From an uncultured Clostridia bacterium (lineage in GTDB: Bacteria > Bacillota > Clostridia > Christensenellales > UBA1242), in contig CALCWV010000075.1 in assembly GCA_937907645.1 (NCBI GenBank), forward strand, positions 1 through 61,063: 61,063 bases of DNA. The letters run 5' to 3'. Positions 28,066 to 49,809 of this stretch are shown one piece after another. Each line of letters starts with the position of its first letter. Positions within the stretch are counted from its first letter, which is position 1. The notes beneath the pieces were generated by a model, which did not search any database, was not told the origin of the DNA, and saw only the letters and a list, made by a program, of their open reading frames with translations. Made by a program: the position numbers and the translations under genes.

Positions 28066-28133
28066 ATATAACTAAACATAGAGGTCACTCAGGCAACAAA
28101 AAAGACTGAAAATTTCAGTCTTTAATTTTTATA

Positions 28134-28547: not shown

Positions 28548-28650
28548 TTTTCCCTCCTGTATATAACCCTATTATACCTATAAATCACTAAAAAATCAAT
28601 ACTTTTGTCGAAAAAAGATTAAAATAAATTTTAATGCTAAAAATATAGTT

Positions 28651-29760: not shown

Positions 29761-29794
29761 AATTTTCTCCTATTCTTTAAAATTTTCTAATGAA

Positions 29795-29823
29795 ATTTTA
29801 TCACAAAATCCCCCTCTAATCAA
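29795..29823 (-). promoter_or_regulatory. Extended -10 promoter of radC
   Basis: On the minus strand: TTGATT (29823-29818), a 17-nt spacer, then TGA-TAAAAT (29803-29795). The predicted +1 is near 29788. The leader carries AGGAG before ATG 29760. Confidence 0.5.
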
Positions 29824-29959
29824 ATAAAATACGGCATTTTCCAGCATTTTTTCAAAAAAAATTTTAAATTCGCATCCCATTCCCTCAATTCTCCACTCTC
29901 TTAGCCCCTAAATCTCGCAAAAATCACATAAAAATCATCAAAATTAATAAAAACAGAAA

Positions 29960-30157
29960 AAAATAAAAAGGTTAAAAAATTTAAAATCTCCATGAAAAGA
30001 TATTAAAAAGAACTATTAAGGAGAACAATAAAAAGCAGCAATAGAATTAGTATTAAAAAGTAGTTTAGAAAAAGTGTAAAAAAGTAGAATTAAAAAGAAG
30101 TTAAAAAGTATTTAAGAAGAAGTTAAAAAAAAGAAGTTAAAAAGAAGGATTTAAAAA
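29960..30157. repeat. Array of about 12 degenerate TTAAAAAG / GAAGTTAAAAAG A-tract repeats
   Basis: AAAAAG-type tracts occur near 29965, 30005, 30030, 30055, 30069, 30079, 30092, 30103, 30124, 30138 and 30152. The 3' two-thirds are spaced about 10-14 bp apart. The array is non-coding and lies between the giant-gene terminator and the radC promoter. Confidence 0.6.
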
Positions 30158-30184
30158 GAACACGACTCCCGTCGTGTTCTTTTT
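30153..30184 (-). terminator. Strong bidirectional terminator after the 19.4-kb gene
   Basis: AGAACACGAC (30157-30166) / GTCGTGTTCT (30171-30180) with tetraloop TCCC, flanked by A5 and T5 runs. Confidence 0.8.
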
Positions 30185-30269
30185 GCTAGAAAAATTGCTT
30201 TATTTCTAAAATACAGCTAATTAGTAAAAAGTGAACATAGTAATTTTGTTAACATCAAATTGCTATATT

Positions 30270-33200
30270 TTAAATATTATCGCCTCCAACTGATGCATTA
30301 ATTTTGCTTACATCGTTTACCTTTCTAAAATATGTAGCTTCAATTGTATATGTATGCACACTAAAGTCATTATACAAATAAATATTATAAAAATTAACGA
30401 TTCCATCTCTATCTAGTTGGTTACTACTATTATACAAAAATGCATTATACGCAACTCTTGAAGGCAGACAATAAAAGGTGTTTGCAGCTATTCTTCCATT
30501 TCTTCCAAAAATGTAAGTTTCATGACTTCTTCCACGTATATAAGTTCGATTATCGTTGATAAGAGCTGGATCCCAATACAGCTTTAATGATTTATCCGCA
30601 TATTCTTTAGTTTCATCATTTTGAGAATTATAATCAAATGTAGAAACTTTAACAGAAATTTCTTCAACGCCGATGACCTCTACTCCTTTATATTCATCCA
30701 CCCCAAATTTAAAATTGCTTCCACTGAGGTCTACTCCACCATGCCCATTATTTCCATTCCATCCGTTTCTTCCTGATTTTAGGGTTACTATAGCTCCAGA
30801 TGATGATTTTGCACTGACTTCACCTGGTGCTCCTTTTAATCCTCCTGCTTGTCCTTTACCGCCACATTTAGGTTGGTCTGAACTTGTATGATCCTTGCCA
30901 AGTTCTCCATCCATTCCATGACCACCATTCCCTTCAAGGCCGGCTTTTAAAACGCCTTTGTTTTCTAACTCGGCGTTACCTATACTTTGACCGTTTCTGC
31001 CATTGTTAGTCTCTCCAGATTCACCATCTTCTCCATCTTTGCCATCAAAACCAACAATTAATCCGTAGTTCACGCTAATTCCATCAAACTTGATCAGATT
31101 GTTAATTTGAGTCCCATCATAATCATCTTTGAATCGACTGTAATTTACGAAGCTTGATGCTCCAGACCCTGTATTGCCAAACAAGTAAACATCCCTTGTT
31201 ATATCGTTTAATGATGTTATTGAACCAAAAGTTTTTGCTCCTGAAATTTTAGTAGCGCCCATATTAATTAGGGATAAATCACTAGTACCATCATTAACCA
31301 CTGCTCCAGCGAAATTTAAATCGTTTATCTCGCCTTCACTTGTATCAATTCCGTTAATTAAGTAGTTTTCATTAGTTGCAAAATTTAGGAAATATTTATT
31401 CCCAATAATCTTACTCTTTATGATTGACTTAACATTATCATTAATATTAATATCTGATTTAAAAATTATTATTTCATAAGAATTAGAAGTATTCTGATAT
31501 GAAGCCTTTCCACTTATATTAGACATATAAGGAGATTCTCCTGTGTTTTCACTGAAATATTCATTATGTGTCTTATATTTAAAAGTTATCTCAACTTCTT
31601 GATCTTCATCGCTATTTGGAATTAATGATAATTTTTTCCCGTCTTCTGAAAATTCATAAGATGTTTCTGGTCGTGTCTGTACTTCCTTTATATAGTCACC
31701 ATATGGTACATCCACTTCACTTTCTACATATGAAATTGTAAAATCGCTTGATTTTGACAAATTGTCTACTTTTACTTCAATTGAATAATTATTTACAGAA
31801 TATTTTTCAAATGATACTTCAAATTTAATGGTAGAAAGTGTTAATTTATATTGTTTCATTCCATCTTGATTAACTTCTTCAATTAGATAGTAATAAGGGA
31901 TAGATTTAATTAAAACAGTATTTGCATTATTATTATCAAATTTTACATTAGAATTTGTGCCAACTTTGGCTAATTTTCCGTCAATATAAGTAAACTCGTA
32001 TTTAACTTCATCAATTTCAACAGCTAAAGGATCTTCTTTAGTACCCGCAGCCGCTTCCTTAGAAGAAATGCTAATTTTTTCTGTTTTGAGTTTACTATTA
32101 ACATTTTCGTTGACTGAACCACAAACATACTTATCATTACCAATCGTAATAACAACTCTGTTAGATGTATACTTATCTCCATCTTCTTCAATTTCATATG
32201 CTTCAGTGTTAGAATTAATTATTTCTCCTGTTGATTGATTAATTAAAATATACTTATCGCCATTTATAAAGTACGCATAATCTTGATTTGAAATAGTAAT
32301 TTTGCCATTGCTACCTTTAATTTCATTATTGTCATTATCTATTAAAACTAAATTACTTTGCGATACATTTGCTGTAAAGCTTGTTCTCTCATTAATCATT
32401 TCAGGATCAACTGAAAGATAGTATGTATAGTTAGCTGTTTCAGTATATAATTTATACGACCTTGTTGTGAATTTTAATTGCACGTTAGTGACAGGATTTG
32501 AGTATGAGAAGCTATAGTCTAAAGTATATGATGTATTATTTGAGTTGTCAAAATATGTCTTCTTGTTTCCATAATTGTCAGAAATTTCATAGACTGCAAT
32601 TGAATCTTTTGCTTTTGTGAACGTGTATGAATTTTCAATTTTTGTCAATGTCCTATTAATTGAAGATTCATAATGCCATGTCTGATAGGAAAAACCACCA
32701 ATTGATATATTTTCATCATAAATACATTGATCCACTTGAGTTCCTGTATAAGTCGCACCTTTTTCGGTTGTTATTGTTGTTTTAAATGTTGGATATTTAA
32801 AATTTCCTTCTCCATCTCCGAGTTTACCATAATTGTCATCTCTTTGGAATTTAACATAAACTGGGATACTCGATCTGAGCCAAGCCCCTACAAGAGTATC
32901 ATAACTAATTTTAAATACAACTTGCCCATCACAGTCCTTTAATATGAAAGTGCCTTCACCTGTTGATACAAATTTTTTATTTATATAACACGTTATATCC
33001 ATTTCATATTTTGTGTCACCATTTTCAATAATTCCTGTTATTGTTAAACTTCCGTCAAGATTTTTTTGATAGGTCTTTTGAGTCCAGAGCTCTGAATTAG
33101 GAAGGTCTATTGATTCAATTTTATTATTCTCATCTCCATATGTTCCCGTCTCATATAAATACTTATTTATCAAACTATCATTGAAATTTCCATTTGAGTA

Positions 33201-36200
33201 AGCTATATATTTATTATTCACGTTAGACAATGTTTTATACTGTCCACCCGTAGTAAATGATGTCTTTTCAAACTCAGATTTTGTATTTTCTATTTCAGCA
33301 TAATCGCTCTTTGACGAAAGAGTATAATTATCTTCAAATGATAAAGATTTTTCAATACCTGATCCATAGTAAGAAATATTATAGGTATCGCTAATCTCTT
33401 TCGCTGTTACGTTTTTACCTAATTCCCCTTCTTTTATTGCTCCAATAACATGTAGTATCCCATCTTCATATTTGCTATCAAAAGATTTCTTTACATCTGG
33501 GTTTAGTTTTTCGGTAAAAGTAACTAAGTAACTACCATTCTCATATAATTGCGATCTTTGCAGTTCACTCAGATATAACTTAATATTTTCTCCATCTACA
33601 ACAATATTTGTTGCACTTAAATTAATAGTTACGCTTTCATCAGCTTTTACAAATGTTAGATTATAGATTATATTAACATTAACGTCTTGTGAGTCTTCTT
33701 TTTTATTTAAAAGGCCTATTCTTAGGTAGTATTTATTTTCCTTTTTTACAATTTTGTTATCAATAATTTCATAATCTTGCGAATTCTTATTTTCAATAGA
33801 GATCGTTGGCGTATAATTTGCCTCCTCTATAGCCTTCTTAATATCGTTTTGATAACTTTCATCAATTTCAATATCTACTACTTTATATTGGTTATTAATA
33901 GTTTTTTCCAGACCTTTTGAATCCTTAATAATTGCAGTAAATTTTCCTCCAACACTAGTTTCCTTTAAATCCTCTGTTTTATCTACATTTAACTTTAATA
34001 ACTTCTCACATTCTTCTTTAGTGAGTGTCCCCTCGTTTGTTATCTTACTCTTTTCATAATAAGATTCTGTACCTTTTAAGTAACGAGTTTCTGAAATAAT
34101 CGTCTGATTAGATACCATTATATTGGCATCTTTTGAAACCCCTGTGTTGAATACGTGAGTTGTATCTACTTGCCCATAGGTAATCGTTCTATTACCAGTT
34201 ACACAGAATGAAGAAGGATAACCTAGTTCATCATATCCAGTAATATTCACATCAGATGCATTAAACGAAATCGACATACCTTTATAATCTTTTAATTTAG
34301 TCCCGGATCCCCAATCATAGAAATAAGTAGTTCCTTTTTCTAATATTTCGTAAATTCCATTTCTTAATACCAATCCATCGCTTTTGTATGATGAACATCT
34401 GTTATAGTTATTTGCAATTATTCCTCCTGCATAAACGTTTATTTTAGCATCGATGATCTTTATCGTAACATCTCCAGACAATTTATTTTTATCAACCTGA
34501 CCTCGAACTTTCTCAATTTGCTCCTCTTCTATATTCTTTCCCAAAGCTTCAATTACGCCAGCATTGTAGAGGTTAGAGAATGTTCCGTCGTCTGCTTTTC
34601 CGACAATTCCTCCAGCATAGGATTCCTTTGTGCTTTTTTTGTTACCAGCTTTAATCATTGCGGTGTTGTAACAATTCTTTACACTTCCACTCGCAACATA
34701 TCCTACAATTCCGCCGGCAACATATCCGCCGTCTTTATCAGTATCTATAACATATCCCGCGATAACCGAGTTAGTGTTCCCGCAGTATGAAATATTTATA
34801 CCAGCTGCCTTTCCAATAATACCACCAGTGTAACAGTCTCTAATACCATCATAATAGGTACTATCATTTTGAATCGGTGCATAGTTTATACAGTTAGATA
34901 GAGTTAAAGCTCCGTTTGCATTCCCAATGATTCCACCAACTCTAGATTTAAGTGCTTCAGATTTAACCTTTACATAATTTTTACAGTATTCAATAGAGGA
35001 ATTACCTCTTGAGTAACCAACTATTCCTCCCACATCGTGAGCACCACCATTTTGGTTCGAAGGTATGTTGATAAATCCACTAGCAACAACATTGTAAATT
35101 TTGCTGTCGCTAGATGTTAGTTTCTCTGCAAGTGATCCAATGTTGACCCCATCAGAGCTTGTATTGATGTTTACATTCATCAAACGTAAGTTTCGAACTG
35201 AACCTGAAAGAGTTGTAAACAAAGGTTTATTAGTTGTTGAGTTAGCATCATCACTAAGCTCGTAATCAATTGTGTATTCTTGGCCATCCAGTGTGCCTGA
35301 GAAACTGCCAAGTTCAATACCTTGCAAATTAGCTTTCTCAAGCTCTAAGTCGTTTGTGAGAACATATCTTCCGTTAGTCAATTTAGATATCTGTGCTAGT
35401 TTTCCTGCATTTGGAACGATCATGAAGTCATTGTCACCATAAGTAAATTCATCCCAAGATTTTGGAGTGTAAGTATACTTTGTTTGAGCATATCTGTCAG
35501 CGCCTGCTGTCTCAGTCTTCGTTGCGTATGATGATTGCTTCAAGAATCCAAAGTTTCGAGTTTGATATCCAAAATTATAGTCTTCTGATGCAGTCCAACC
35601 AGTGCCAGGTGTTGAGCTTTGAACCCCTGCAAAATCGACGGTAACAGCACTTGTTGTTTTTTCTGTTACTCCGGTCTCTGTTTTACTATACTCCGTTGCA
35701 TTAACGTCGTACCAGCAGTTAGTGTATGCCGCCGTGCCGAAGTTGAATGCAGCTGGTTCTGTTTGACCATTTACATAATCATGCCAGTCAATCTGTGAAA
35801 TTGTATAACAATTTGAAACGTTTACATTTCCATTGCTTGATCCATCAATGAATCCATATGTTGTGGCATTGATATATGTTGATACTCTGCCAGTTGAATA
35901 TGAATTTCTAATTGTGATTGGCTCGCCATTATGGTCTGAAAGTGTTGCAAAACCAGCTACTTCTCCGCCTCCTGCTGAGGTGTTTGTTTTATCGTTTCCG
36001 CTCTCATCTTTTCCAACTCCTGCACGATAAAGGACGTTCGCTCCTGCCACTGACTCGTCGATAAGTCCGCTCTTGAGATTTCCTACGATTGGGGCAAGGT
36101 TGATTGCACCGGTTCCTCCAACAGAGATGTTTCCATAAACCGCAACGGCATATAGCGTTCCACCTGTCATCACATTCAAAAGTCCACCGTTTACGCCACT

Positions 36201-39200
36201 ATCTGTCTCGATGTTTGCTGTCAATCTGATTGATGAAATAAATTCGTTTTGAGCTAACTCATGAGCGATGTAAGTTGTGGTTGCAGCTGATTGCTCTGTT
36301 CCAAAAGCAACAGTTCTTGCATCTCCGACAATCGCGAGCTTGCAATCATTTTTAGGACTAACCTGAATTTGATTTGCACTTGTCAAATCCTCTTTTAATA
36401 CGTAATATGTAACACCGTTTAAAGTTGATTTTTCTAATGTTGAATTATTATCAACTTCAACTGTGGTTGAATTATAATCTGCACCAGTCGTGTCAGCACC
36501 AGTAGATCCAATTGTAATTGGGTTAAGCTTATGACCCTTGTTGAATGTTATTCCTAGATTAAGGCCACTACCATCATTGATTTTATCTGTGATTAGAGAA
36601 ATTAGTGAGTGATTATTAATCAATTCGCTTATATTAACTCCATCAATTTCGTAATCTCCCTCGTATTTTGATCCATAGCCACGATATGTGCCACTTGGAG
36701 CATAAGTATTGTTGTATCCAACATCAGTTCCAATCATCACGTCATTATTATCGTTATCCTTGTAGCTTTTGTCGTCAGTTGTAAGTGTAACTGCATGTGA
36801 ATAAAGATTTGATGCATCCCAAGTAGTTGTGCCTTCTCCCAAAGCTCCTAAGATTGCATGTCTTCTATCATTTGCTTCAGTTTCTGCAATTCTATCATTT
36901 GCTTCAGTTTTCGCAATTCTATCATTGTTACATGTTGTAAGTGATAGGTTGCCTTGAATTGATAAGTTTTTGCTATATCCAACAATTCCGCCAAATGTAA
37001 AGGTTGAAAGTTTTTGGGCATTTCCGCTATAAGTGATGATGTAATCACCATAAGATGCGTTGTTTGTGACGTTAATTGTTGATGAACCTTCGTCTTTACC
37101 AACAATTCCTCCAAAGGTGTGTGTGCCGCTAGTTAAATTTGCTCCATAAACTTTGAATGCACCGCCAAAGACTGAATTTGTGATTCCTTCTCCTCTTGCG
37201 CTTGAAATATGTCCAACAATCCCGCCGGCTGTGAGATTCTCTGCGTTTACAAAGAAGTTTGCATCTACAAATGCATTTGAAATGCCGATTGTAGCAGATG
37301 TTGCAGCTTCTCCGACAACTCCACCAACGTAGTCGCTACTTGCGGAACTTGTCAATGCTAACATTCCTCTGTTTTGGAAATTTGTAACTGATACATTTCC
37401 ACCTTCGGTTGTTCCAATAAGTCCACCAAAATATGTGTTGTCTGTTGCTGAGAGGGCGATCTTTGAGTTTCCTGTGAACTCTGCACCACCAACTGTTACG
37501 CTTGCACTATTTTGTCCGATTAATCCACCAGCGTAGATTGTTCCAGCTGATAATGGAGCAATCTCATTTTCTGTATATGAGTTCTTAATCGAATCCTTTG
37601 TCAAGTTGATTGGGTTGGCTGTTTTACCAACTGTAAAATTGTCGATAGTTAAGTTATTTCCAATATTGACAGCTCCCGTAGCCGATCCCGTAGCCGATCC
37701 AGCTAAAGCACCAATATGAGCAAACTTAATTGTTGCATCTGAAACAATATTTCCAGAAATTGTGAGATCTGAAGAATTAGCGATTTCTTCACATGCTGTA
37801 GCAGTTAATGATCCAAATACGCTTCCTGCGTATAAATCCTTAATTTGTCCTTTCAGTGTAACGTTTCCGTTTATTCCTTTAATTGAATCAGAAGTCATTT
37901 CAAGTTTATCTGTAGATAAAGAGCCTACTAAACCTGCTACGCGTGCGTCTTCGTTATTAGACATATTAAGCGCAATGTTAGACTCTATAGTGTATTTGTC
38001 ATCTGCGTTTGATGACTCTGTATTCAATTTAAACTGTCCTGCTAGGTTAATATCTCCACCTAATGCGCCCGCAAAAGTTGATTTATTTGCTGAAATATTT
38101 TCATTGTGGCTAATTGTTCCCTTTTCAATAGTTAAATTCTTTGCAAAAACCTTTCCGAACATTCCTCCTGTGTAGACGTTACCTGACGATAATATTTCGA
38201 TAGGATTGTTATCTGTGTCTTTATAAATATTTGAGTTAAATGATGCAAGAGTGATCGTAATATTTAGATTTGAATTTTCATCTGCTTCGTACTGTTTTTC
38301 AGTTGCATTTGAGCCATTTCCTTGACTAGCTTTTACAACTGTATGTTGGATATTTCCTATTCCACCTGAGATGAAAGTTTTTTCGCCTGAGCTGATTAGT
38401 CCAAAATTATATCTATCGTTGTTATTTAGATGTCCTAATGAAGAATTAATATTCTCTGCTTCAAAGTTAAATTCACTAGAGACATTGGCGTTTCCGATTA
38501 AGCCTGCAATATATATTTCTTCAGCAGTAATGTGTCCATCCTTTGAATTAGCGCTTGCAACAGCGAAAGACAAATCGCCCAATACCTCAATATTAAATCT
38601 GTTAATTGCCTCATCAGGTGTACCTAGCTCACCAACTAATCCACCAAAAGCAACTTTATTGGAATTTTTACTATCATTGTTTATAGCATTATATCTAATA
38701 GAAGTTGAGATTCCTGCTCTTGTACCACTAATTGTGTTAGCTGTTAATGATCCAAACATTCCACCTAAATAAATAGTTGTATCGACTGTTTCTTTTTGAG
38801 GAGTAATAATATCTAAGTTTAGTGGGTGGTCTTCCTTTTCTTCTTTCTTTAGAACTAAGGTCTGAATATCGGCTTTCCCAACATATCCTCCTAGATATAG
38901 TTTTGATCCCTTAGTAACAATATTAAATTCAATACTTGTTGCATTAGTCCCATCGTTGTCGCTCCAAATATCCTTCGTAGTAAGATTAACTGAAGCAGGT
39001 GTAACCTGTGTTGCATTCGTGTCACCAATTTCACCTGCATAAATGCCGGCAAATATTTCATTAGGCGATACTGTATAGCCGTCACTAGCTCCAGACAACG
39101 AAATAGTTGTTTTCCCTTGTGCATGGACATCAATTTCAGTAATTTCCATTGTTCTGTATTGATTAGCTTGCAAAATTGATCCAGCGAGAAGGCCAAATTT

Positions 39201-42200: not shown

Positions 42201-45200
42201 AATGTTTGCACCTTCCATTCTGCATGATGCGTAGCTAAGTTCGATTCTTCCAGAGTTTTGATATACAAAACCTGCTGCATAATAACTTAATTTTTCATCT
42301 GCATTCAATCCTTTGATTGCAATGTTTGAATATGAGTTGTCAATTGATCCTGTGTTGTTTGAAACAAATCCTGCAACATATCCGTTTGAAGATATTGATG
42401 TTCCGTTTAAGCAAAGTGATTTGTCTGTTCTGTCATCGCCCGTTGTTGTTTCAGTTCCCTGTACAAAGGACGTAGAAATTCTTCCAGAGTTGCTGCTTGC
42501 AAATCCAGATGTAAAGAAGTTAATATTTTGTGCTTTGTTTGTAATTTGAACACGGTTTGCACTTGAACTTGTGATTACACCTGAGTTCTGTGAAACAAAT
42601 CCAGAAACTCTGCCCTGTGCAATAATATTGAATGTTCCAAGGTCTTCGCTTGAAGCGTTTTGCCCGTCGTTGTTGAGTACTAATACGCTATCGCCACCCA
42701 CTCTTGAGTTTGTGATTACACCTGTATTGTTGATAACAAAACCAGCAACCTCGCTATTAATATCTGTCCCGTTTGGCAAGATATATTCTGCTTTCAAACG
42801 GATAAGACTTACATTCAATCCCAGTTTATTTACGTCAGTATATGAAAGTGTGCTTGAGTAATATGGAAGACATACAACTTCGCAGTTGTAGATAATTCCA
42901 GCGTTGTCAATTGCGAAACCAGCAACTTGGATTTCACTAAATCCGTCCCTGCTGCTTACGTCAATATCAATTTGTCCACCATAGTAATAATTTACTCTGA
43001 TGTTCTTTAATGTTGTGTTACTTGTTACGCTTGAGAACAAAGCTCTTGCGATTGAAGTTGAACCTTTTTCTAGGTTGAAACTTGTGATATTGATTGTGTA
43101 TCCGTTACCATCGAGCATTTCAATCTTAGATGTATCGATTGGTGTGTAGTTAACTAATTCAATATCGTTTGTTAAAATGTAGTTTTCTGCTGTTGCATTG
43201 TTAGGAATATTTAAGAAGTCTTCAGCACTTGAGATTGATAATAAGTTATCTTCTTCATCAGTATATACTGTTACACTAATATTATAATAACAGCTAATCT
43301 CGTTGTAACTTGAAGAAAGTTTGTTTGTGTAAATTCTGTTTACAAGTTTTAATCTTACAGGTTCGTCTGTTGTTGCAACGCCTGTGATTGTCATTTTCTT
43401 GGTTGTCTCATCATAAGTGAGCTTGAATTTTCCGCAATCTGCAACTCCATCAACAAATCTAACCCTTGTTGAATTGTTGCCTTCTTCGATGTACATTCTT
43501 TCTGTTACGGCTATTCCCTGAATATCTCCATCTTGTCCCTTTTCCGTGTTGATGCTGAATGCTTCATCATTATTTAAATAGTAACCTTTGCTTGCAAATT
43601 CTTCTCTTGCTAAATTTAATTTTTTTACTATATCAGAATCTTCATTGTCAGCGTATTCAATTGGATCGAATGTATATGTCAATTCAAAGTCATGAATAGC
43701 GTCTTTGTAGATCTCAATTTCAGTTGTTGAGCTTGACAAACTGAAATCAACTAAAGTCAAAGTGCTTCTTGTCTCTTCAATTTCTTTTACACCATTTACA
43801 AAACGTGAAACTCGTGCATATACTTGGAAATTGCCGAGTCCTTGTGTTCCGCCGTTGATAGCTGCAGTTAGGTTTGCTCTAACTGATGTTGTGTAATATT
43901 TTGAGCCGTCAGCGTTGTAGAAAGGTCCAAGAATTTCACCAATTGTAATGCCACTCTTTACTCCTGAAAGACCAATATCTTCTCTGCTTAATGTTTGATC
44001 TTTCCCAAGTGAGATTTTTACTGGAATACTGCTTCCCTTGGCAAGAACTGGTGAGCCATTTTGCTCTGGATTAACCTCGATCTCAGCAGGTTTTTGATAT
44101 GTAATATTGTATGCATAACTTGCTGTGTCAAGCTGCTCTCCATTCTTTCCATAGAAAGTGATTGTGAGAGGAATAATGCAGTCTTGTGTAATTGATTTCG
44201 AAGCATATACCCTGAAAATGTATTGTTCAGGTCTTCCATTTATTTTGTTTGGATTAACTTGAATACTGTTTCCTAAATATGAAAACTCGTTTGAATTGTC
44301 AATCGTGTAAGCATCTAAAGTTCCTCCCCAAGGAACCATCTTTGTAAGGTTCAAATAGTATCCTTCTGATGACTCTGCGCCAATTGTGAAATATTCATAG
44401 TAAGAATATGTTGGGTCAACGCCAATAACCATATATGAGAAGTTCCCCGGTGACAACATACTTGAGATTTGATTCTTTCTGTGATATACAGTTGTATTCC
44501 CTTCTACTGTTGGGTTGCTGTGTAAGTAGCTTGTCATATCAATATGATTAATGTCTTGTGGTTCAAGTTTGATTGTTACAACAAAGTTTTCGTTGTCTGC
44601 TGTTCCGCTCTGTGAAGATATAATCATATAGAAAGTTTCTTCTTCAGATATTTTGTTCTTGTAGTTTTCATCAATTGAAACAGTGAGAACATATTCTTGT
44701 TTGCTATTCCCTTTGTTTGCCTTCAAAACTTTGATCTTATTTACATCAGCATCCATGAAAGTGGTGAATTCATTTATTGATTTTTCACTAACTGCTAAAG
44801 TTGTTCCATCAACGTTTTCTAAATCTTTGACGATCTTGAAAAGAATAGCGTCTCCGTCCACGTTGTCAGTTGTGAGAGTAACATTCACTGAGCTTGTTGT
44901 TGAAGGATAGATAACAATCTGGCTGTTTGAAACACCAATGTGTCTTGCACCTTTGAATGTTTTTAATGTGAATGTATCCTCAAATGATTCTTTAATTTTA
45001 TCATTGTATGCATTAGCTAATCCCTTAACAGAAAGTGTTGCTTTGAGGCTGTAACTTCCAACTTCTTCTTTGTTTGTTGCAGCGACTGTTCCTGTGAAGC
45101 CTGTGATTGTGAAATCAATGTTGTTATTATCTGGAGTGAAATCTGCACCTTCTTCTGTTTTTTCTGTAATTCCATTGTGATCTGCTGTAATCTCATAATT

Positions 45201-48200
45201 ATCTTGAACGAGGTCATAAACTTTTGATGTTCCAAGATAGATTGAGCTCTTGATTGTGTAGTTGATTGAAGCTGTGTTTCCAACTTGAAGATTTAAGACA
45301 TTTCCTGTCACATCATTCTTAAAGTTCGAGATTGTGTTTATTACTACAAACTTAAATTCTTGAGATTTTGAGTAGTCTTTCTTTGAATAAACAGTGAGAG
45401 TAATCTCTTCTGTAGTTGTTCCTTTGATAACGATTGAGTTTGATGTTACATCTACAACATCTGTATCTGAGCTTGTTACTGTAATGTCGTTTGAATCCTC
45501 ACATCCAAATAAATCACTAAATGATATTTTGTTTGCATCTTCGAGTCTGTTCTTCTCTCCATTTGATAGAGATACTAAAGCCGCTGTGATGTTTGTTCTC
45601 ATCAAAATTCCACTGTAATCGTCAACAGACAAAACTTTTCCATCAATGCTTTGAACACTGAGGTCTGCTACGTTAATAATATTTGATTGATAGAATTTAA
45701 GGTGTGCAAATCCCTTGTTTACATATTCCTGAAAGTTTGTCTCTCCCTTGAAAATCCAGTTTTCGCTTGTATCATTATTCCTTGAAGTTGGAGCTGTTGA
45801 TGTGTACTTAGTTTCTTCGTAATATGATATATAGGAATCTGTAATTGAAGCTGTTAATTCTTCGTTAGTCTTATTTCCTGCATATACGTTGAGGTTAGCA
45901 ACAGCGAATGAGTTTTTGATTGTGCTGCCTTCGTCTTGTCCAATCATTGCTCCAACGCGGGCATTCTCGCCATTTGCTGTAATCTTGCTTAAACCTGTTG
46001 TTGACAAGTCATAATCATAAACATAAGAGTTTTCGATTGTTCCAGTGCCTCTTCCGACGAATCCACCAGCAAAGCCGTCAGTCTCACCAGTAATTTTTGA
46101 AGTTACTGAGTCTCCAAAATTATAAAGTTCAACAAAAGAGTTTGAAATTGTTCCGCTATTTGCACCTGCAATTCCACCTGCTGATGCTCCTAATATAGCT
46201 GGTCCATATACGTAGGCTTTATTGATTGTTCCACTGTTTTGACTTGCGATCGCTCCTGCGTCACCTTTTACAGTATCTTCTGCTGTTACTGTACTTGGAG
46301 CAACTCTTGTGTTTCCTTCCTTATCTTTAACTAAGCGAACATCAATCTTAACGTTTTCGATTGTTCCCTTGTTTAATTTTGCCACAAAAGCGTCTTGAAC
46401 GTCACCTTTGAATGTTAAGTTTTTAACGCTTCCCTTGTTTGAAATTTCAGCAAACAAAGGATTGCTTGTTCCTGCAAAAGTAATTGTTACATCAGATGAA
46501 TTTCCAGTTAATCTGTCGCTTTCTTTTACATATCCACTGAGTGACCCACGGAACTCTCCGAGGCTTGCCCAGTTTTCAAGAGTAATATCATTCATTAAGA
46601 TATAGTGCTTTGAAAGGCTGATATTCTTGAGCTGATCTTCGCTGTAAATTCTATAAGCTGTTTCTTCGCTCTGACCGTCGGCTATTATAACTCTAATTTT
46701 CTTGATTACTTTGTTTAAATTTACATAGTTCTTGCTTCCGTCTGCATTGAGTCCTGCAAGGAATACAGAGTTGTTGCTTGCAAGAGCTGAATATTGATTT
46801 CCGATATCGCTTAAAGCTACGTAACTAAGCACATATTGTCCACTTTCGTTTGAAAAATATGGAATGCTTTCAATTCCTTGAATGTTCTTAATTGCATCCT
46901 TAGGGAGCATGTAGACATATCCTGTTCCACCTGTCACTAAGTTTGAACTTATTGAAACGATATTGTCTTTGATTGAAAGAACACTAGCTGATGTTCCGTT
47001 GTCTGGAACGAATTTGTATGCGATTTCTTTGTTGTAAGCATCGTCTGGCTTTGATGTTGTGATGAATACAAAATTTCTATCGTTGATATCTGTTGCAGAT
47101 GTATCTAAGTAGATAGAATCAACTTCATTTTCCCAAACTAGTTCGCTAATTCTCGTTGCGTTCTTAACATTTAATGTTAGTGCAAGTCTGAATGTTAAAT
47201 TGAATTTTGTGTACTCCACGTTAAGAGTGTTTCTTGTAATTCCATATCCATTTGTTGACTTTGCATGAACGTCAAATGACAATTGATTGTTTTCAACTTT
47301 AACGTTGTCAACTGTGTATGAATATGAGTCACCTGAGAAGGCATATTCAGATTCTGAGCCTAATGTGAATGAATCTCCGCCAAGCGAAATCTTGAATAAA
47401 CCTAGATCTGTGTAAGTAACCTTGTTGTTATCCGTTCTAAGATTTACAATTACATGTTGAACTGATTTTGCGCTATCTTCAACTGACAATGAGTCTTCTG
47501 AAACCATGTCAACTGTAGTAGCGTTTGCTTTCATAGTTGTAACTGGAACATAGACCTCATAAGTAAATGAGCAAATTTTGCTCACTTCTTCGTGATCCAT
47601 GTCATATCCCTTGAATGTGAATGTTATTGTTTTTGCCTCAGCTGTTTCCTGCTTTGCAAATAATACATTTGATGTTCTGTTGAACCAAGTGTTGTCAAGA
47701 GCCCCCATTTCGTCTTCAATAGTTAAATCGGTGTATACGCCTTTAATATTGAAATTTAATTTTACGCTCGAGCCGAGTGTTGCGACTAAAGCTGATAGAG
47801 ACCCGCTTGAAAGAGTGTAACTTGATACACCTGTTAATGTTGTTGGGTCAACAGTGATTTTTGCCTCTTCTAGTGGAACGAATGTATTCAAGATAATGTC
47901 TCTGTCTGCCCTCATCCCGTTCTTGTGACAAAGGGTAATTTTAATTTCGCTCTTTTCAAATCTGAGTGCTGTGTTTGTGATTGAGAATTTGATTTTTCCA
48001 TTCTCATATGTGATTCCAGATTCTTCGATAGGGAGTGTTCTGTCAAAGTCGAGATACAAGCCTTGAGCTGTAGAAATTCCACCAACACTTACTTCAAATG
48101 CACGTGAGTTATAGACATTCGTTGCCAAATATCCAACAGCGTCCTCTTGAACTGTAATTGATGAAGGAGCTTTTACACATTCAAAGTTTACTTCCTTTCT

Positions 48201-49688
48201 GATATTCTCTTCTGCTCTCTCTGAGATAAATCTAACTTTGATATTTCCAGTTGCAGCCGAGCCAGCCATGATAAATAATTCTGAGTTGTTGCTGATTGGA
48301 TTACTCTTCCAAATATTTCCATTCTTTGTGAACTCTACACTTACTCCATTGAGTGTAACTTTGATGTATCCTGATAGGTTATTTTGAGTTGCTGCTTCTG
48401 AACAATCAATTTCCATGAAGAAGTTTGACTCGCTTGGAAGAACTGTGTCTGGCTTCAACTGAACGTTGAACCATCTTCCCTTCCCATTTGCATAAGCTTG
48501 ATATAACTCATAAGTTGCCCCGTCTGGAACTAATCCTTCGTCTGATGTAACAACGATATTGTCAACAACATCGCTGACAGCAAATCTAACAGCATCGCTT
48601 TCAATCACTTTGTCGAAATATACATATTCCATTTCGAATCTAACTTCAGCTACTGAAGGATCGAAGTCCTTCTTTCCGCTAACTCTGTAGATATATTCAT
48701 TTCCATTCTTTGTTTCTAGTGGAACAGCAAGACAATCGTCTGTTAGAACTCCGTTAACATAGACATATGGTGTTATTTTGAAGTCATAGCTTGTATTAAC
48801 TGTAAATCTAATGTATGCTTCCTTCTCTTCAACGGCGTCGTTATTTCTAACGATAGAAATTGTATTTGTAATTGCCTGAGCAACTGATGTGCTATTTCTT
48901 CCAAAGTAGAAGTTGCCAAATCCGTCATTTACTGTATTTAAAACTTCGAGGTTTACTTCAGCTGTTAGGAATCTTGAATTTGCGATCAAAGCAATTTCGC
49001 TTCCAACATAGTTTTGTGAAACAAGCAAAGTTTTGTTATCTTTAATTGTTGCAACTACTTCAGCTGTTGCATTGAGTAAATCAATTCTTCCTTCTGCTGC
49101 GTTTTCTAGTTTTATGTATGATCCATCAGCAGTGTTAAAATCCCATGTGATTTCTTTTCTGTTGCTTTCTCCTCCGTTACGTGATTGCATTTCCAAGAAT
49201 CTGTCACTTCTAAGTTCTAATTCTTTTCCAATTTCAACAAACTGTGTTTTCTTTTGTCCTTCAAGGTTTTCTTTTTGTGTGAGTGAAACTAAATCGCTGT
49301 AAACATAGACATTGATTGTTACAGGATCGGCTGAGCCAGACCAACTGTTCAAAATTAATTGAGCTTGTCCTTCGCTTTGAGCTGTGAGAGTTATTACAGA
49401 TTGATCTTCGCTTGCACTGTAGTTAGTGTTTACTTGAACAATGCTTTCATAGTTGTTTGAGACTTTTACTCTTCCGTCATTGGCATTTAAAACTTTAGCG
49501 TTAACGGTCGCGGTGTGCACATCGCCTTCGTTAAGACTTAGTTCAATGTAATTTTCCTTATCTTCGGATGTAACGAAATAATCAGAGGAAACTTGAATCT
49601 CCCCTTTTAACTCTTCGCCACACGCTACAAAAACAAAGCTGCCTAATAATAAAAACGCACCAAATAATGAGAAAATAAATCTTTTCAT
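30270..49688 (-). CDS. Giant surface lipoprotein (about 6472 aa) with Ig-like domains, at least 4-5 GLUG-repeat beta-helix modules, and a Gly-rich collagen-like segment near the C-terminus
   Basis: Single uninterrupted 19.4-kb ORF. I set the start to ATG 49688 (MKRFIFSLFGAFLLLGSFVFVAC, lipobox FVAC), with AGGAG 6 nt upstream. The ORF-track GTG at 49742 adds 18 residues. Module openers (...Y.L.NDI.L...F.G.LdGnGyTI) lie near nt 46668, 43246, 41835 and 35430. Dense repeats include AGGIAGANSGTI, VGGLVGAVFG, IGGLIGYQKYG, AGGLIGQNS, VGGVVGEAA, AGGIVGHIS, FGGIVGKDEG and VGGIVGYSRGN. Confidence 0.9.
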   Translation of the reverse strand: MKRFIFSLFGAFLLLGSFVFVACGEELKGEIQVSSDYFVTSEDKENYIELSLNEGDVHTATVNAKVLNANDGRVKVSNNYESIVQVNTNYSASEDQSVITLTAQSEGQAQLILNSWSGSADPVTINVYVYSDLVSLTQKENLEGQKKTQFVEIGKELELRSDRFLEMQSRNGGESNRKEITWDFNTADGSYIKLENAAEGRIDLLNATAEVVATIKDNKTLLVSQNYVGSEIALIANSRFLTAEVNLEVLNTVNDGFGNFYFGRNSTSVAQAITNTISIVRNNDAVEEKEAYIRFTVNTSYDFKITPYVYVNGVLTDDCLAVPLETKNGNEYIYRVSGKKDFDPSVAEVRFEMEYVYFDKVIESDAVRFAVSDVVDNIVVTSDEGLVPDGATYELYQAYANGKGRWFNVQLKPDTVLPSESNFFMEIDCSEAATQNNLSGYIKVTLNGVSVEFTKNGNIWKSNPISNNSELFIMAGSAATGNIKVRFISERAEENIRKEVNFECVKAPSSITVQEDAVGYLATNVYNSRAFEVSVGGISTAQGLYLDFDRTLPIEESGITYENGKIKFSITNTALRFEKSEIKITLCHKNGMRADRDIILNTFVPLEEAKITVDPTTLTGVSSYTLSSGSLSALVATLGSSVKLNFNIKGVYTDLTIEDEMGALDNTWFNRTSNVLFAKQETAEAKTITFTFKGYDMDHEEVSKICSFTYEVYVPVTTMKANATTVDMVSEDSLSVEDSAKSVQHVIVNLRTDNNKVTYTDLGLFKISLGGDSFTLGSESEYAFSGDSYSYTVDNVKVENNQLSFDVHAKSTNGYGITRNTLNVEYTKFNLTFRLALTLNVKNATRISELVWENEVDSIYLDTSATDINDRNFVFITTSKPDDAYNKEIAYKFVPDNGTSASVLSIKDNIVSISSNLVTGGTGYVYMLPKDAIKNIQGIESIPYFSNESGQYVLSYVALSDIGNQYSALASNNSVFLAGLNADGSKNYVNLNKVIKKIRVIIADGQSEETAYRIYSEDQLKNISLSKHYILMNDITLENWASLGEFRGSLSGYVKESDRLTGNSSDVTITFAGTSNPLFAEISNKGSVKNLTFKGDVQDAFVAKLNKGTIENVKIDVRLVKDKEGNTRVAPSTVTAEDTVKGDAGAIASQNSGTINKAYVYGPAILGASAGGIAGANSGTISNSFVELYNFGDSVTSKITGETDGFAGGFVGRGTGTIENSYVYDYDLSTTGLSKITANGENARVGAMIGQDEGSTIKNSFAVANLNVYAGNKTNEELTASITDSYISYYEETKYTSTAPTSRNNDTSENWIFKGETNFQEYVNKGFAHLKFYQSNIINVADLSVQSIDGKVLSVDDYSGILMRTNITAALVSLSNGEKNRLEDANKISFSDLFGCEDSNDITVTSSDTDVVDVTSNSIVIKGTTTEEITLTVYSKKDYSKSQEFKFVVINTISNFKNDVTGNVLNLQVGNTASINYTIKSSIYLGTSKVYDLVQDNYEITADHNGITEKTEEGADFTPDNNNIDFTITGFTGTVAATNKEEVGSYSLKATLSVKGLANAYNDKIKESFEDTFTLKTFKGARHIGVSNSQIVIYPSTTSSVNVTLTTDNVDGDAILFKIVKDLENVDGTTLAVSEKSINEFTTFMDADVNKIKVLKANKGNSKQEYVLTVSIDENYKNKISEEETFYMIISSQSGTADNENFVVTIKLEPQDINHIDMTSYLHSNPTVEGNTTVYHRKNQISSMLSPGNFSYMVIGVDPTYSYYEYFTIGAESSEGYYLNLTKMVPWGGTLDAYTIDNSNEFSYLGNSIQVNPNKINGRPEQYIFRVYASKSITQDCIIPLTITFYGKNGEQLDTASYAYNITYQKPAEIEVNPEQNGSPVLAKGSSIPVKISLGKDQTLSREDIGLSGVKSGITIGEILGPFYNADGSKYYTTSVRANLTAAINGGTQGLGNFQVYARVSRFVNGVKEIEETRSTLTLVDFSLSSSTTEIEIYKDAIHDFELTYTFDPIEYADNEDSDIVKKLNLAREEFASKGYYLNNDEAFSINTEKGQDGDIQGIAVTERMYIEEGNNSTRVRFVDGVADCGKFKLTYDETTKKMTITGVATTDEPVRLKLVNRIYTNKLSSSYNEISCYYNISVTVYTDEEDNLLSISSAEDFLNIPNNATAENYILTNDIELVNYTPIDTSKIEMLDGNGYTINITSFNLEKGSTSIARALFSSVTSNTTLKNIRVNYYYGGQIDIDVSSRDGFSEIQVAGFAIDNAGIIYNCEVVCLPYYSSTLSYTDVNKLGLNVSLIRLKAEYILPNGTDINSEVAGFVINNTGVITNSRVGGDSVLVLNNDGQNASSEDLGTFNIIAQGRVSGFVSQNSGVITSSSANRVQITNKAQNINFFTSGFASSNSGRISTSFVQGTETTTGDDRTDKSLCLNGTSISSNGYVAGFVSNNTGSIDNSYSNIAIKGLNADEKLSYYAAGFVYQNSGRIELSYASCRMEGANISQSNFSGVGVKGESLNTGTIEKCYYNAKDSNLTEDVENAMQTGATLARNPSSETQFYGFSFATELDSNDGIWYIGNDGLLTLTEPNQITFSHRERIATTINGSSKYPYVSINGDDAFKYGGKKNPVIIRSAEEFDLAMGNPEAGTNLKNLVTGSYVNGVYRLVSTVDLSDLKVGEEEINLSSTNKTFRGVLDGNGFTIKNIAISAKRTENVLESVGLFSKIENGSIYNLKLEIQNVTATNSALVGGLAGTMTGNSRLINIAVTQVVPTGTGVSANTFGVKGDNLVGGLVGAVFGEAKITNVSITDPIVQSAYYDEKHSIKTDGFYDSQTIYDSQTITKEAFSYRKVRQELYNSERNFQDSISKLSFAGGLFGYIDAFKPSLRDSFNMETVSDNGYSITNLKGYNTANIRGEIVGGLVGFAGITSNVKDAGFIFTSSDETTNIISYNGAAGGVFGYTVSIIKQIYAEYDSETQDAIEDNLANYYGGSTSVERGYSEIFIDTSSWNVGAGDYIENKPEYIGGLIGYQKYGKLIASYSKINVIAGTDGCVAGGVVGRVGNPTPQSAWNENPINNDGVSGTSTTVLLNEVYSSGDVRGVVGSKFTAGGIVGSIAGNAKLSLTAVNSVNFFGISEYNQVDYQGDNSTYSLAKLEIYALVGERETDKEGKGAELNSILTLSQALAQQANQSEASEKHIGYVSSMNYKGITVDILPYPGFDKVKAKAEGKNDKQPLSKNLIEISPLSKITSRKTGYIEMNGYFLNSGNWSTDNWRQDLTDLYPKIKFVEILDVVYLDQYNIDETLILMRSSAKEIRVRGLDKSKTTQGPINLTEDQYQALLGIDNFAGRLIGGWDADGESDLSMIDTVPIVLDGKNLMFKRLGAGTVFKNLKIVYASGVKADGITFEDLDEIKQTGSTFIEQEVNECRFENVTFDYSKVGQISLTYAGTDNNYTAGLICPSAKSTSFIKVKFELGNNGGEGNYINVEYPASSNTTGGLPVESKIKSTKFGLLAGSILQANQYRTMEITEIDVHAQGKTTISLSGASDGYTVSPNEIFAGIYAGEIGDTNATQVTPASVNLTTKDIWSDNDGTNATSIEFNIVTKGSKLYLGGYVGKADIQTLVLKKEEKEDHPLNLDIITPQKETVDTTIYLGGMFGSLTANTISGTRAGISTSIRYNAINNDSKNSNKVAFGGLVGELGTPDEAINRFNIEVLGDLSFAVASANSKDGHITAEEIYIAGLIGNANVSSEFNFEAENINSSLGHLNNNDRYNFGLISSGEKTFISGGIGNIQHTVVKASQGNGSNATEKQYEADENSNLNITITLASFNSNIYKDTDNNPIEILSSGNVYTGGMFGKVFAKNLTIEKGTISHNENISANKSTFAGALGGDINLAGQFKLNTESSNADDKYTIESNIALNMSNNEDARVAGLVGSLSTDKLEMTSDSIKGINGNVTLKGQIKDLYAGSVFGSLTATACEEIANSSDLTISGNIVSDATIKFAHIGALAGSATGSATGAVNIGNNLTIDNFTVGKTANPINLTKDSIKNSYTENEIAPLSAGTIYAGGLIGQNSASVTVGGAEFTGNSKIALSATDNTYFGGLIGTTEGGNVSVTNFQNRGMLALTSSASSDYVGGVVGEAATSATIGISNAFVDANFFVNAENLTAGGIVGHISSARGEGITNSVFGGAFKVYGANLTSGTHTFGGIVGKDEGSSTINVTNNASYGDYIITYSGNAQKLSTFTFGGIVGYSKNLSIQGNLSLTTCNNDRIAKTEANDRIAETEANDRRHAILGALGEGTTTWDASNLYSHAVTLTTDDKSYKDNDNNDVMIGTDVGYNNTYAPSGTYRGYGSKYEGDYEIDGVNISELINNHSLISLITDKINDGSGLNLGITFNKGHKLNPITIGSTGADTTGADYNSTTVEVDNNSTLEKSTLNGVTYYVLKEDLTSANQIQVSPKNDCKLAIVGDARTVAFGTEQSAATTTYIAHELAQNEFISSIRLTANIETDSGVNGGLLNVMTGGTLYAVAVYGNISVGGTGAINLAPIVGNLKSGLIDESVAGANVLYRAGVGKDESGNDKTNTSAGGGEVAGFATLSDHNGEPITIRNSYSTGRVSTYINATTYGFIDGSSNGNVNVSNCYTISQIDWHDYVNGQTEPAAFNFGTAAYTNCWYDVNATEYSKTETGVTEKTTSAVTVDFAGVQSSTPGTGWTASEDYNFGYQTRNFGFLKQSSYATKTETAGADRYAQTKYTYTPKSWDEFTYGDNDFMIVPNAGKLAQISKLTNGRYVLTNDLELEKANLQGIELGSFSGTLDGQEYTIDYELSDDANSTTNKPLFTTLSGSVRNLRLMNVNINTSSDGVNIGSLAEKLTSSDSKIYNVVASGFINIPSNQNGGAHDVGGIVGYSRGNSSIEYCKNYVKVKSEALKSRVGGIIGNANGALTLSNCINYAPIQNDSTYYDGIRDCYTGGIIGKAAGINISYCGNTNSVIAGYVIDTDKDGGYVAGGIVGYVASGSVKNCYNTAMIKAGNKKSTKESYAGGIVGKADDGTFSNLYNAGVIEALGKNIEEEQIEKVRGQVDKNKLSGDVTIKIIDAKINVYAGGIIANNYNRCSSYKSDGLVLRNGIYEILEKGTTYFYDWGSGTKLKDYKGMSISFNASDVNITGYDELGYPSSFCVTGNRTITYGQVDTTHVFNTGVSKDANIMVSNQTIISETRYLKGTESYYEKSKITNEGTLTKEECEKLLKLNVDKTEDLKETSVGGKFTAIIKDSKGLEKTINNQYKVVDIEIDESYQNDIKKAIEEANYTPTISIENKNSQDYEIIDNKIVKKENKYYLRIGLLNKKEDSQDVNVNIIYNLTFVKADESVTINLSATNIVVDGENIKLYLSELQRSQLYENGSYLVTFTEKLNPDVKKSFDSKYEDGILHVIGAIKEGELGKNVTAKEISDTYNISYYGSGIEKSLSFEDNYTLSSKSDYAEIENTKSEFEKTSFTTGGQYKTLSNVNNKYIAYSNGNFNDSLINKYLYETGTYGDENNKIESIDLPNSELWTQKTYQKNLDGSLTITGIIENGDTKYEMDITCYINKKFVSTGEGTFILKDCDGQVVFKISYDTLVGAWLRSSIPVYVKFQRDDNYGKLGDGEGNFKYPTFKTTITTEKGATYTGTQVDQCIYDENISIGGFSYQTWHYESSINRTLTKIENSYTFTKAKDSIAVYEISDNYGNKKTYFDNSNNTSYTLDYSFSYSNPVTNVQLKFTTRSYKLYTETANYTYYLSVDPEMINERTSFTANVSQSNLVLIDNDNNEIKGSNGKITISNQDYAYFINGDKYILINQSTGEIINSNTEAYEIEEDGDKYTSNRVVITIGNDKYVCGSVNENVNSKLKTEKISISSKEAAAGTKEDPLAVEIDEVKYEFTYIDGKLAKVGTNSNVKFDNNNANTVLIKSIPYYYLIEEVNQDGMKQYKLTLSTIKFEVSFEKYSVNNYSIEVKVDNLSKSSDFTISYVESEVDVPYGDYIKEVQTRPETSYEFSEDGKKLSLIPNSDEDQEVEITFKYKTHNEYFSENTGESPYMSNISGKASYQNTSNSYEIIIFKSDININDNVKSIIKSKIIGNKYFLNFATNENYLINGIDTSEGEINDLNFAGAVVNDGTSDLSLINMGATKISGAKTFGSITSLNDITRDVYLFGNTGSGASSFVNYSRFKDDYDGTQINNLIKFDGISVNYGLIVGFDGKDGEDGESGETNNGRNGQSIGNAELENKGVLKAGLEGNGGHGMDGELGKDHTSSDQPKCGGKGQAGGLKGAPGEVSAKSSSGAIVTLKSGRNGWNGNNGHGGVDLSGSNFKFGVDEYKGVEVIGVEEISVKVSTFDYNSQNDETKEYADKSLKLYWDPALINDNRTYIRGRSHETYIFGRNGRIAANTFYCLPSRVAYNAFLYNSSNQLDRDGIVNFYNIYLYNDFSVHTYTIEATYFRKVNDVSKINASVGGDNI
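36864..36926 (-). repeat. 27-nt in-frame tandem repeat (2.3 copies) inside the giant gene
   Basis: Units at 36864-36890 and 36891-36917 differ at 2 positions, followed by a 9-nt partial copy. The repeat encodes NDRIAKTEA-NDRIAETEA-NDR. Confidence 0.9.
37675..37700 (-). repeat. 12-nt perfect in-frame tandem duplication inside the giant gene
   Basis: cccgtagccgat occurs twice (37675-37686 and 37687-37698) and encodes GSAT-GSAT. Confidence 0.9.
41193..41228 (-). repeat. 18-nt perfect in-frame tandem duplication inside the giant gene
   Basis: tatagtctggctatcgta occurs twice (41193-41210 and 41211-41228) and encodes YDSQTI-YDSQTI. Confidence 0.95.
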
Positions 49689-49769
49689 TTTCGCTCCTAT
49701 TTTATTATTTTTATTTTGAAAAATATTAGTCATAACTCTCACCTTTTTTCAACCTTTTTTTACAGAATA

Positions 49770-49809
49770 ATTTTACAATATTTTGTCATTAAATGTCAAA
49801 TGAATGACA
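49770..49809 (-). promoter_or_regulatory. Predicted promoter of the 19.4-kb gene, overlapped by an inverted repeat
   Basis: On the minus strand: TTGACA (49799-49794), an 18-nt spacer, then TAAAAT (49775-49770). The inverted repeat TGTCATT (49784-49790) / AATGACA (49803-49809) spans the -35 region, with a third TGTCA half-site between the arms. Confidence 0.4.

Follow-up and report, generated by a model that had tools for sequence, protein, structure and literature searches.

The giant protein described here is encoded by a single 19.4-kb gene on contig CALCWV010000075.1 of an uncultured Clostridia bacterium (61,063 nucleotides, all of which were analysed and are called the window), and can be compared with several described surface proteins and genetic switches. 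With the M26 IgA1 metalloproteases of S. pneumoniae (6xja) and G. haemolysans (7uvk) it shares GLUG repeats and a beta-helix, and its opener motif can be aligned weakly with the end of Peptidase_M26_N. Unlike these enzymes, it carries no M26 catalytic domain, HExxH or LPXTG motif, has an N-terminal lipid anchor, contains several beta-helix modules instead of one, and exceeds the solved constructs (1286-1295 residues) several-fold in length. The Gram-positive beta-solenoid adhesins SRRP of L. reuteri (5nxk) and PfbA of S. pneumoniae (4mr0) are right-handed beta-helix surface adhesins that ranked 16 and 19 in a Foldseek search, and the similarity is at the level of the fold only (E 0.3-0.4); both are sortase-anchored and far smaller than the giant protein. 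In Mollicutes, lipid-anchored surface proteins vary their exposed part by site-specific inversion. In the Vsa inversions of M. pulmonis, an expression site that supplies promoter and lipobox is linked to one whole body or another, whereas relatives of the giant gene keep the body and exchange the distal tip only. Finally, the shufflons (R64 PilV, and the G segment of phage Mu with Gin) have in common with relatives of the giant gene an inverted promoterless 3' cassette that shares an inverted repeat with the expressed gene. The giant gene is a variation on these known kinds, a GLUG beta-helix surface protein in a family with shufflon-type tip exchange.

The gene occupies about one third of the window and was read from the minus strand (30270..49688) as one uninterrupted open reading frame (ORF) from an ATG, with 6472 codons followed by a stop. 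A frame of this length at 35.6% G+C, the composition of the window, cannot have arisen by chance. The same frame is open upstream to a GTG at 49742 (6490 residues in the ORF listing), and public gene calls use an ATG at 49733 (6487 residues), 15 codons upstream of the ATG at 49688; the lipobox is retained with either ATG. The mature protein is ~700 kDa with an isoelectric point of 4.7 and would, to our knowledge, rank among the largest predicted bacterial lipoproteins. The N-terminal sequence MKRFIFSLFGAFLLLGSFVFVAC matches the Gram-positive lipobox pattern (regular expression), and the sole hydrophobic stretch of the protein is this signal (19-residue Kyte-Doolittle window at or above 1.6 only at residues 1-9); the same scan found no second hydrophobic or membrane-anchor segment. 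The giant protein is thus a predicted lipoprotein, probably lipidated at Cys23. A lipobox is also kept in the homologous proteins P0006 and L003 and in a 3381-residue paralogue, while the lgt and lsp genes do not lie within the window. Motif scans of the whole protein found neither HExxH nor LPxTG or its variants LPxT[GASN], and a sortase-anchored adhesin was rejected for lack of the latter. A sequence-only reading of this DNA had proposed a very large gene with no internal stop, a lipoprotein signal, and a protein with no HExxH or LPXTG; the translation, the lipobox at Cys23 in the only hydrophobic segment, and the scan, which recovered no catalytic or sortase motif, bear this out.

The most informative feature of the protein, which that reading had missed, is a gradient of divergence that ends in a polymorphic C-terminal tip. 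P0006, the closest orthologue, is a protein of 6531 residues on a separate ENA contig of 46.7 kb. It is colinear with the giant protein from end to end and 78% identical overall, and the divergence grows from about 5-10% close to the anchor to about 50% over the last 1400 residues. By region, the identity declines with distance from the anchor: it is 84-95% over residues 24-3290, 74-75% over residues 3291-5100, 49% over residues 5101-6100, and 59% in the glycine-rich neck (residues 6101-6330). In the tip (residues 6331-6472) the identity is nominally ~35%, counted on 108 aligned residues in an alignment that has 87 gap columns, and the final ~140 residues are essentially unrelated in the two proteins. 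An exhaustive search of 1.84 billion representative proteins with the last 1200 residues returned four proteins only, one of which was P0006, and residues 5101-6100 have one real relative among these representatives. A word-index search with residues 5200-6472 gave no match, and a scan of JGI metagenomes with a profile of the neck found no relative. At the level of the family, profile searches and alignments indicated that the neck is the only conserved part of the last 1200 residues.

Orthologues were found in related genomes at the same tilS-radC locus. L003 carries a syntenic orthologue, in the order LPG synthase, M23 peptidase, acyl carrier protein, SpoIIID, TilS and then the giant gene; its TilS is 56% identical to that of the window, and its giant protein is colinear over >3700 residues at 30-36% identity, broken only by a scaffold gap. 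The giant proteins of L006 and L007 (5918 and 6161 residues) are colinear with residues 2676-6289. These two and P0006 are intact, and for this lineage no frameshifts or stops were found in independent assemblies, which the sequence-only reading had named as what would overturn it; the L001 contig matches the window at 100% identity and hence does not count as an independent copy. In two assemblies of project XIAO16 (L002:118-21030 and L008:1-10816) the giant-gene homologues are split into consecutive ORFs on the same strand (for example of 2022, 2105, 565, 218 and 271 residues), which may reflect either frameshifts from assembly or sequencing, or decay and pseudogenisation.

In sister species the C-terminal tip is swapped by DNA inversion. 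Six related loci have a promoterless alternative tip in inverted orientation just downstream of the giant gene. Searches with the neck profile matched small 'proteins' of 248-297 residues, each encoded on the strand opposite to a giant gene, in the interval from its 3' end to radC. Their residues N-terminal to ISSQNV resemble non-coding read-through. Public gene calls list these cassettes as proteins in their own right; for annotation, the family shows that small 'genes' beside such giants are silent 3' cassettes and not independent proteins. In L004, L006, L007, L011 and L013, inverted repeats join the cassette to the giant gene (108 nt at 96% identity, 131 at 97%, 111 at 91%, 103 at 98% and 106 at 87%), with one arm in the 3' part of the gene and the other, 1.1-1.4 kb away, at the silent inverted cassette. 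The repeats begin exactly at the codons for ISSQNV, inside the coding sequence, and ~30 nt separate the stops of gene and cassette. Within a genome the arms are perfectly identical over ~97-115 nt, and they differ between genomes, indicating ongoing exchange between the arms. Inversion in these relatives exchanges the last 190-280 codons in frame; on simulated inversion the giant ORF stayed open in all three loci tested (L006, L007 and L004), with the alternative tip installed.

Both orientations were observed within one species. L006, from a Hadza gut metagenome, and L011, the GTDB representative 'Clostridiales bacterium UBA11517', have flanks that are 96-99% identical and carry a 1394-bp segment in opposite orientations. 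The expressed tip of L006 is 97.9% identical to the silent tip of L011, and the reverse pairing is 99.5% identical. L007 has the same two tip types in a configuration reciprocal to that of L006, while L004 and L009 carry further cassette types. The arrangement is of the known shufflon-type, or 'partial intergenic', inverton class (PMC9881135; 10.1101/2023.03.11.532203), here on a giant Clostridia lipoprotein. Compared to R64 PilV and the Mu G segment, the target is a chromosomal lipoprotein of ~6000 residues, the repeats are long and coding (103-131 nt), there are two tips only at each locus, and there is no adjacent recombinase, no recombinase family having been found in the neighbouring genes of the window, of L011 or of L004. 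It is possible that a recombinase acting in trans, or RecA, drives the inversion. Pfam and PHROGs searches with ten tips and cassettes matched no toxin family; in some relatives the glycine-rich part gave weak, probably compositional matches to 'collagen like minor tail' (E 0.003-0.02).

The switch of the relatives is not in the window. Between the stop of the giant gene and radC, the position of the cassette in relatives, 510 nt contain no ORF longer than 36 residues, and no inverted repeat >34 nt was found at 28000-33000. Searching the 61-kb window by tblastn with all cassettes matched only the giant gene's own neck, and no second cassette. Since the window has neither a cassette nor an inverted repeat, its tip is fixed; the repeat pair, both orientations and nearby invertase by which shufflons and invertons are recognised were not found in the window. 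Residues 6233-6264 of the neck (nt 30897-30992) are homologous to the inverted-repeat crossover site of related loci, and a second cassette-less locus, L012 (CAVCJG010000003.1), also has the conserved crossover motif. The window represents one locked state in a family that is polymorphic for the presence of the switch. The L012 contig is labelled 'Eggerthellaceae bacterium', and its 39% G+C and its giant-gene/radC/uvrB synteny, as in Clostridia loci, indicate that it is probably mis-binned. Degenerate tandem repeats lie in the AT-rich spacer of the window, with unit lengths of 11, 24 or 48 nt (TTAAAAAGAAG is an example), and no similarity between them and the tip cassettes was found. A diversity-generating retroelement target was also considered and rejected, as no reverse transcriptase family was found among all ORFs of at least 150 residues and three smaller ones, and there was no long repeat at the 3' end.

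We then turn to the body of the protein, which the sequence-only reading had described as built from GLUG modules with 4-5 openers and dozens of repeats. The strict motif GG[LIV][VIA]G was counted 19 times where 0.2 would be expected, and a relaxed form of it gave 27 matches. A repeat hidden Markov model built from copies of this type gave 25 matches in the giant protein, 5 in the 3381-residue neighbour, and 0 in reversed and shuffled control sequences. Reading of residues 2200-2500 identified ~6-7 variants of the form AGF[VA]xxNxGxI, the type found in module 2, and the full pattern GGxxG-x-N-x-G-x-I occurs once only in the protein. Four clear openers were present, against 0.02 expected for the strict pattern. 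The repeats and openers are therefore real, and their numbers had been put too high, there being four clear openers and roughly 30 repeats in total.

Pfam found no family at E<=0.01 in the uncut protein. When the protein was searched as 10 segments, Glug (PF07581, gathering cut-off 20.5 bits) was above its cut-off in three, spanning residues 990-1340 (21.2 bits), 2600-3300 (28.8 bits) and 4740-5250 (43.1 bits), and the opener of module 3 matched the C-terminal end of Peptidase_M26_N weakly (E 1.4e-3, below the family cut-off). No Big_2 or other Ig-like Pfam model matched any of the 10 segments at E<=10, NCBIfam gave nothing meaningful on the same segments, and PDB sequence searches with single sequences and a profile gave no match. 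BLAST self-comparison found no internal repeats in residues 24-1000 or 1330-2140, and in the region 3291-4740 it paired residues 3498-3732 with 3681-3922 and 3828-4030 with 4041-4228. Our literature search found no paper linking GLUG to a beta-helix, and the 'GLUG motif' was mentioned only incidentally.

One module (residues 2140-2620) was modelled with AlphaFold2 from an alignment of five homologues and the paralogue. The model (predicted template-modelling score, pTM, 0.82) has short strands stacked regularly along residues 10-380 to form a right-handed beta-helix, and all top matches in the PDB and in a viral structure library were right-handed beta-helices. The best PDB matches were the IgA1 proteases 7uvk and 6xja (probability 1.00 and 0.98; E 0.025-0.04). 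Further down the ranking came enzymes of the pectate-lyase type, tailspikes and autotransporter passengers, as well as the adhesins PfbA and SRRP, and the viral library returned a 'putative immunoglobulin A1 protease' and 'right handed beta helix' proteins. The Glug matches by segment and this fold search establish GLUG and beta-helix content and support the proposed relation of the GLUG modules to the IgA1-protease beta-helix. That description holds for ~45% of the giant protein, which is beta-helix-like, and fails for the ~3400 residues (24-1004, 1331-2139, 5101-6100 and the tip) that match no Pfam, NCBIfam or PDB family.

With moderate confidence we take the giant protein to be an adhesive fibre that is held by a lipid anchor and binds through a polymorphic tip, a function that we infer. 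It would be exported by Sec, lipidated at Cys23 and then tethered to the membrane by its N-terminus. Rigid beta-helix modules and unclassified spacer domains would together form a stalk of ~150 nm (a rough geometric estimate), bearing the fast-evolving distal third, the conserved glycine-rich neck and the ~140-residue tip beyond the cell wall. The tip would be the ligand-binding end, directed to a host or dietary glycan, to mucus or to another cell. In relatives, a promoterless tip lying inverted between the giant-gene stop and radC is brought into frame by recombination between the repeats, which swaps tips. The interpretation given in the sequence-only reading is partly supported, largely right and incomplete, with its fibre or adhesin function still putative. 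More tentatively, the giants of the tilS-radC locus may constitute an undescribed class, a cellular 'tail-fibre-like' organelle made of a single lipid-anchored polypeptide of ~6000 residues with a receptor-binding tip on the conserved glycine-rich neck. The neck would then also serve as the site at which programmed recombination exchanges the tips, and lineages of the window type would have lost the spare tip and become locked into one specificity.

Several observations weigh against the adhesive fibre. Ligand binding, expression and surface placement are predicted only, and many enzymes that degrade glycans are likewise built on a beta-helix. In the Foldseek search against the PDB the modelled module has weak E-values, though the ranking is coherent, and over half of the giant protein has no recognisable fold. 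The AlphaFold2 model of neck and tip (residues 6080-6472, from a 7-row alignment) was unusable, with a predicted local distance difference test (pLDDT) score of 33. The evidence for inversion comes from relatives at ~30% identity, and since the window has no switch, a polymorphic binding tip is an extrapolation for its own copy. Some assemblies (L002 and L008) also show the giant gene in fragments.

The divergence towards the exposed end and the tip switching of the relatives fit antigenic or phage-receptor variation equally well, and the acidic protein might then be a non-adhesive fibre coat, a shield or a decoy whose distal end varies solely to escape antibodies or receptor-using phages, with no change of ligand specificity in view; the failure to recognise a binding domain in the Pfam segments and tips is in line with this. 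We consider such a coat unlikely, because the window also encodes a shorter paralogue without neck and tip, which makes the tip a specialised addition, and because a discrete tip of folded size on a conserved neck resembles the ends by which tail fibres and PilV bind their receptors (PMC9881135).

A giant surface enzyme, in which the beta-helix modules act as polysaccharide lyases or hydrolases or as a scaffold for proteolysis as in the IgA1 proteases, is somewhat less probable still. No CAZyme (carbohydrate-active enzyme), lyase or peptidase family was found with Pfam or NCBIfam, HExxH is absent, and the match to the IgA1 proteases is limited to their non-catalytic beta-helix, with E-values that reflect a shared fold and not homology. 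This is to be set against the Foldseek matches beyond the IgA1 proteases, which are mostly pectate lyases, pectin methylesterases, alginate and fucoidan lyases and phage depolymerase tailspikes. An M26 protease in particular was rejected, as the protein has no HExxH and no M26_C match, and matches M26_N below threshold only.

A conserved body with a pre-tip motif, unrelated C-terminal domains and, in relatives, spare promoterless cassettes downstream are reminiscent of the contact-dependent polymorphic toxins (CdiA, Rhs and LXG proteins with orphan C-terminal cassettes). This reading is very improbable, since no ORF of immunity size follows any tip, either in the spacer of the window or in the ~30 nt of room in relatives; moreover, no toxin family was matched, the cassettes are exchanged by inversion and not by displacement, and an N-terminal lipid anchor is ill-suited to delivery. 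Lastly, repetitive genes are prone to misassembly, the L002 and L008 homologues are split, and the only other contig with the exact sequence (L001) is not independent, but an assembly chimera, or a decaying pseudogene whose frame is still open, deserves almost no credence given 6472 stop-free codons at 35.6% G+C, a colinear orthologue of 6531 residues on another contig, orthologues of 5918 and 6161 residues, and internal repeats too divergent to collapse.

The internal repeats are indeed strongly divergent, most BLAST pairs being 22-35% identical and the best 41% over 85 residues, and at the protein level they are therefore too unlike for assembly collapse. Three short in-frame tandem duplications were noted in the giant gene (Table 1); P0006 has one NDRIAxTE unit and one GSAT unit, and does not have the YDSQTI repeat, which suggests length variation of the slippage type.

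The window is chromosomal, with the gene order rpoC, rpoB, the 3381-residue paralogue, a VirB4/TraG-like ATPase, hflX, htrA, an MBL-fold gene, radC, the giant gene, tilS (divergent), spoIIID, acyl carrier protein, an M23 peptidase, an LPG-synthase-like gene and pth. Those homologues that carry a name belong to metagenome-assembled genomes of 'Clostridia' or 'Christensenellales', and related contigs come from gut metagenomes, e.g. Hadza; the organism is a low-GC, spore-former-type uncultured Clostridia of animal guts. The giant protein and the 3381-residue protein are 25% identical over 981 residues (E 4e-33), and with the Glug match and lipobox of the latter this confirms the paralogy proposed in the sequence-only reading; the glycine-rich C-terminal part (neck and tip) is missing from the paralogue. 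Between the two giant lipoprotein genes lies the gene for a 902-residue protein with a TraG/VirB4-type P-loop and an N-terminal 480 residues of no family; its neighbours are housekeeping genes, with no other conjugation genes in view, and a PRC-barrel protein is encoded next to it. A 120-residue gene was seen at the same radC-adjacent position in all related loci. The small SpoIIID and acyl carrier protein genes fall below the 90-residue ORF cut-off; SpoIIID is 59% identical to the L003 copy, and its gene suggests an endospore-forming organism. Scanning the window for Rfam families and tRNAs gave no match.

Table 1. Features of the giant protein, its gene and neighbours in the window, and of the tip cassettes in related loci
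Feature	Residues	Position (nt)	Strand	Remarks
Promoter-like TTGACA-18 nt-TAAAAT		49770..49799	-	consensus scan, 11/12 matches; pattern match only
Shine-Dalgarno AGGAG		49694..49698	-	5 nt before ATG at 49688; read from upstream sequence
Signal peptide and lipobox	1-23	49620..49688	-	MKRF...FVFVAC; lipobox regular expression; Cys23 candidate lipidated residue
Membrane-proximal region	24-1004	46677..49619	-	no recognised family (Pfam/NCBIfam E<=0.01, PDB sequence E<=1); 91% identical to P0006
Beta-helix module 1	1005-1330	45699..46676	-	3 GLUG-like repeats at 1169, 1206, 1244; Glug 21.2 bits
Opener 1	1029			YILMNDITL
Spacer	1331-2139	43272..45698	-	no significant family; 90% identical to P0006
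Beta-helix module 2	2140-2620	41829..43271	-	AGFVxxNxGxI variants; AlphaFold2 and Foldseek
Opener 2	2170			YILTNDIEL...LDGNGYTIN
Beta-helix module 3	2621-3160	40209..41828	-	8 GLUG-like repeats; Glug 28.8 bits
Opener 3	2656			YRLVSTVDL...LDGNGFTIKN
Degenerate beta-helix-like region	3291-4740	35469..39818	-	9 GLUG-like repeats at 3639-4231; no Pfam match
Beta-helix module	4741-5100	34389..35468	-	5 strong GLUG repeats, 4885-5023; Glug 43.1 bits, 4 stretches
Opener 4	4775			YVLTNDLEL...LDGQEYTI
Fast-evolving distal orphan region	5101-6100	31389..34388	-	49% identical to P0006
Pre-tip and glycine-rich neck	6101-6330	30699..31388	-	conserved by alignment across the family
Strain-specific C-terminal tip	6331-6472	30273..30698	-	no Pfam or PHROG match
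In-frame tandem duplication		36863-36926		27 nt x2.4 (NDRIAxTEA)
In-frame tandem duplication		37674-37700		12 nt x2.2 (GSAT)
In-frame tandem duplication		41193-41228		18 nt x2 (YDSQTI)
Spacer between giant gene and radC (cassette position in relatives)		29761..30269	.	empty, AT-rich; degenerate 11/24-nt tandem repeats at 30042-30160
Paralogous lipoprotein with GLUG modules	3381 in all	9158..19303	-	Glug match, own lipobox
TraG/VirB4-type P-loop protein	902 in all	19475-22183	-	PF19044, AAA_10, DUF87
PRC-barrel protein		22292-22999		
Protein without Pfam match at E<=0.001	218 in all	25061-25717	-	
Protein without family match	129 in all	27676-28065	-	hydrophobic C-terminal tail
Protein without family match	118 in all	28651-29007	+	hydrophobic C-terminal tail
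SpoIIID gene		50827-51066	-	
Acyl carrier protein gene		51182-51394	-	
Protein without Pfam match at E<=0.001	628 in all	54139-56025	-	
Protein without Pfam match at E<=0.001	372 in all	57528-58646	+	
Protein without Pfam match at E<=0.001	373 in all	59830-60951	-	
Inverted promoterless tip cassette		L006:10001-11460		
Inverted promoterless tip cassette		L007:6969-8479		
Inverted promoterless tip cassette		L004:3402-5079		
Inverted promoterless tip cassette		L011:10496-11991		
Inverted tip cassette, truncated		L013:10524-11977		decayed repeat

About half of the giant protein, including its distal 1400 residues, is essentially without relatives. With this family, a Gram-positive giant surface protein joins the targets of gene-altering inversion, which have so far been mostly restriction specificity subunits, tail fibres, PilV and SusC/D. 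The family is a natural experiment: some copies of the gene have a switchable tip, others a decaying switch, and others no switch at all, which makes the binding of the tip, and the reasons for which its variation is kept or lost, accessible to study.

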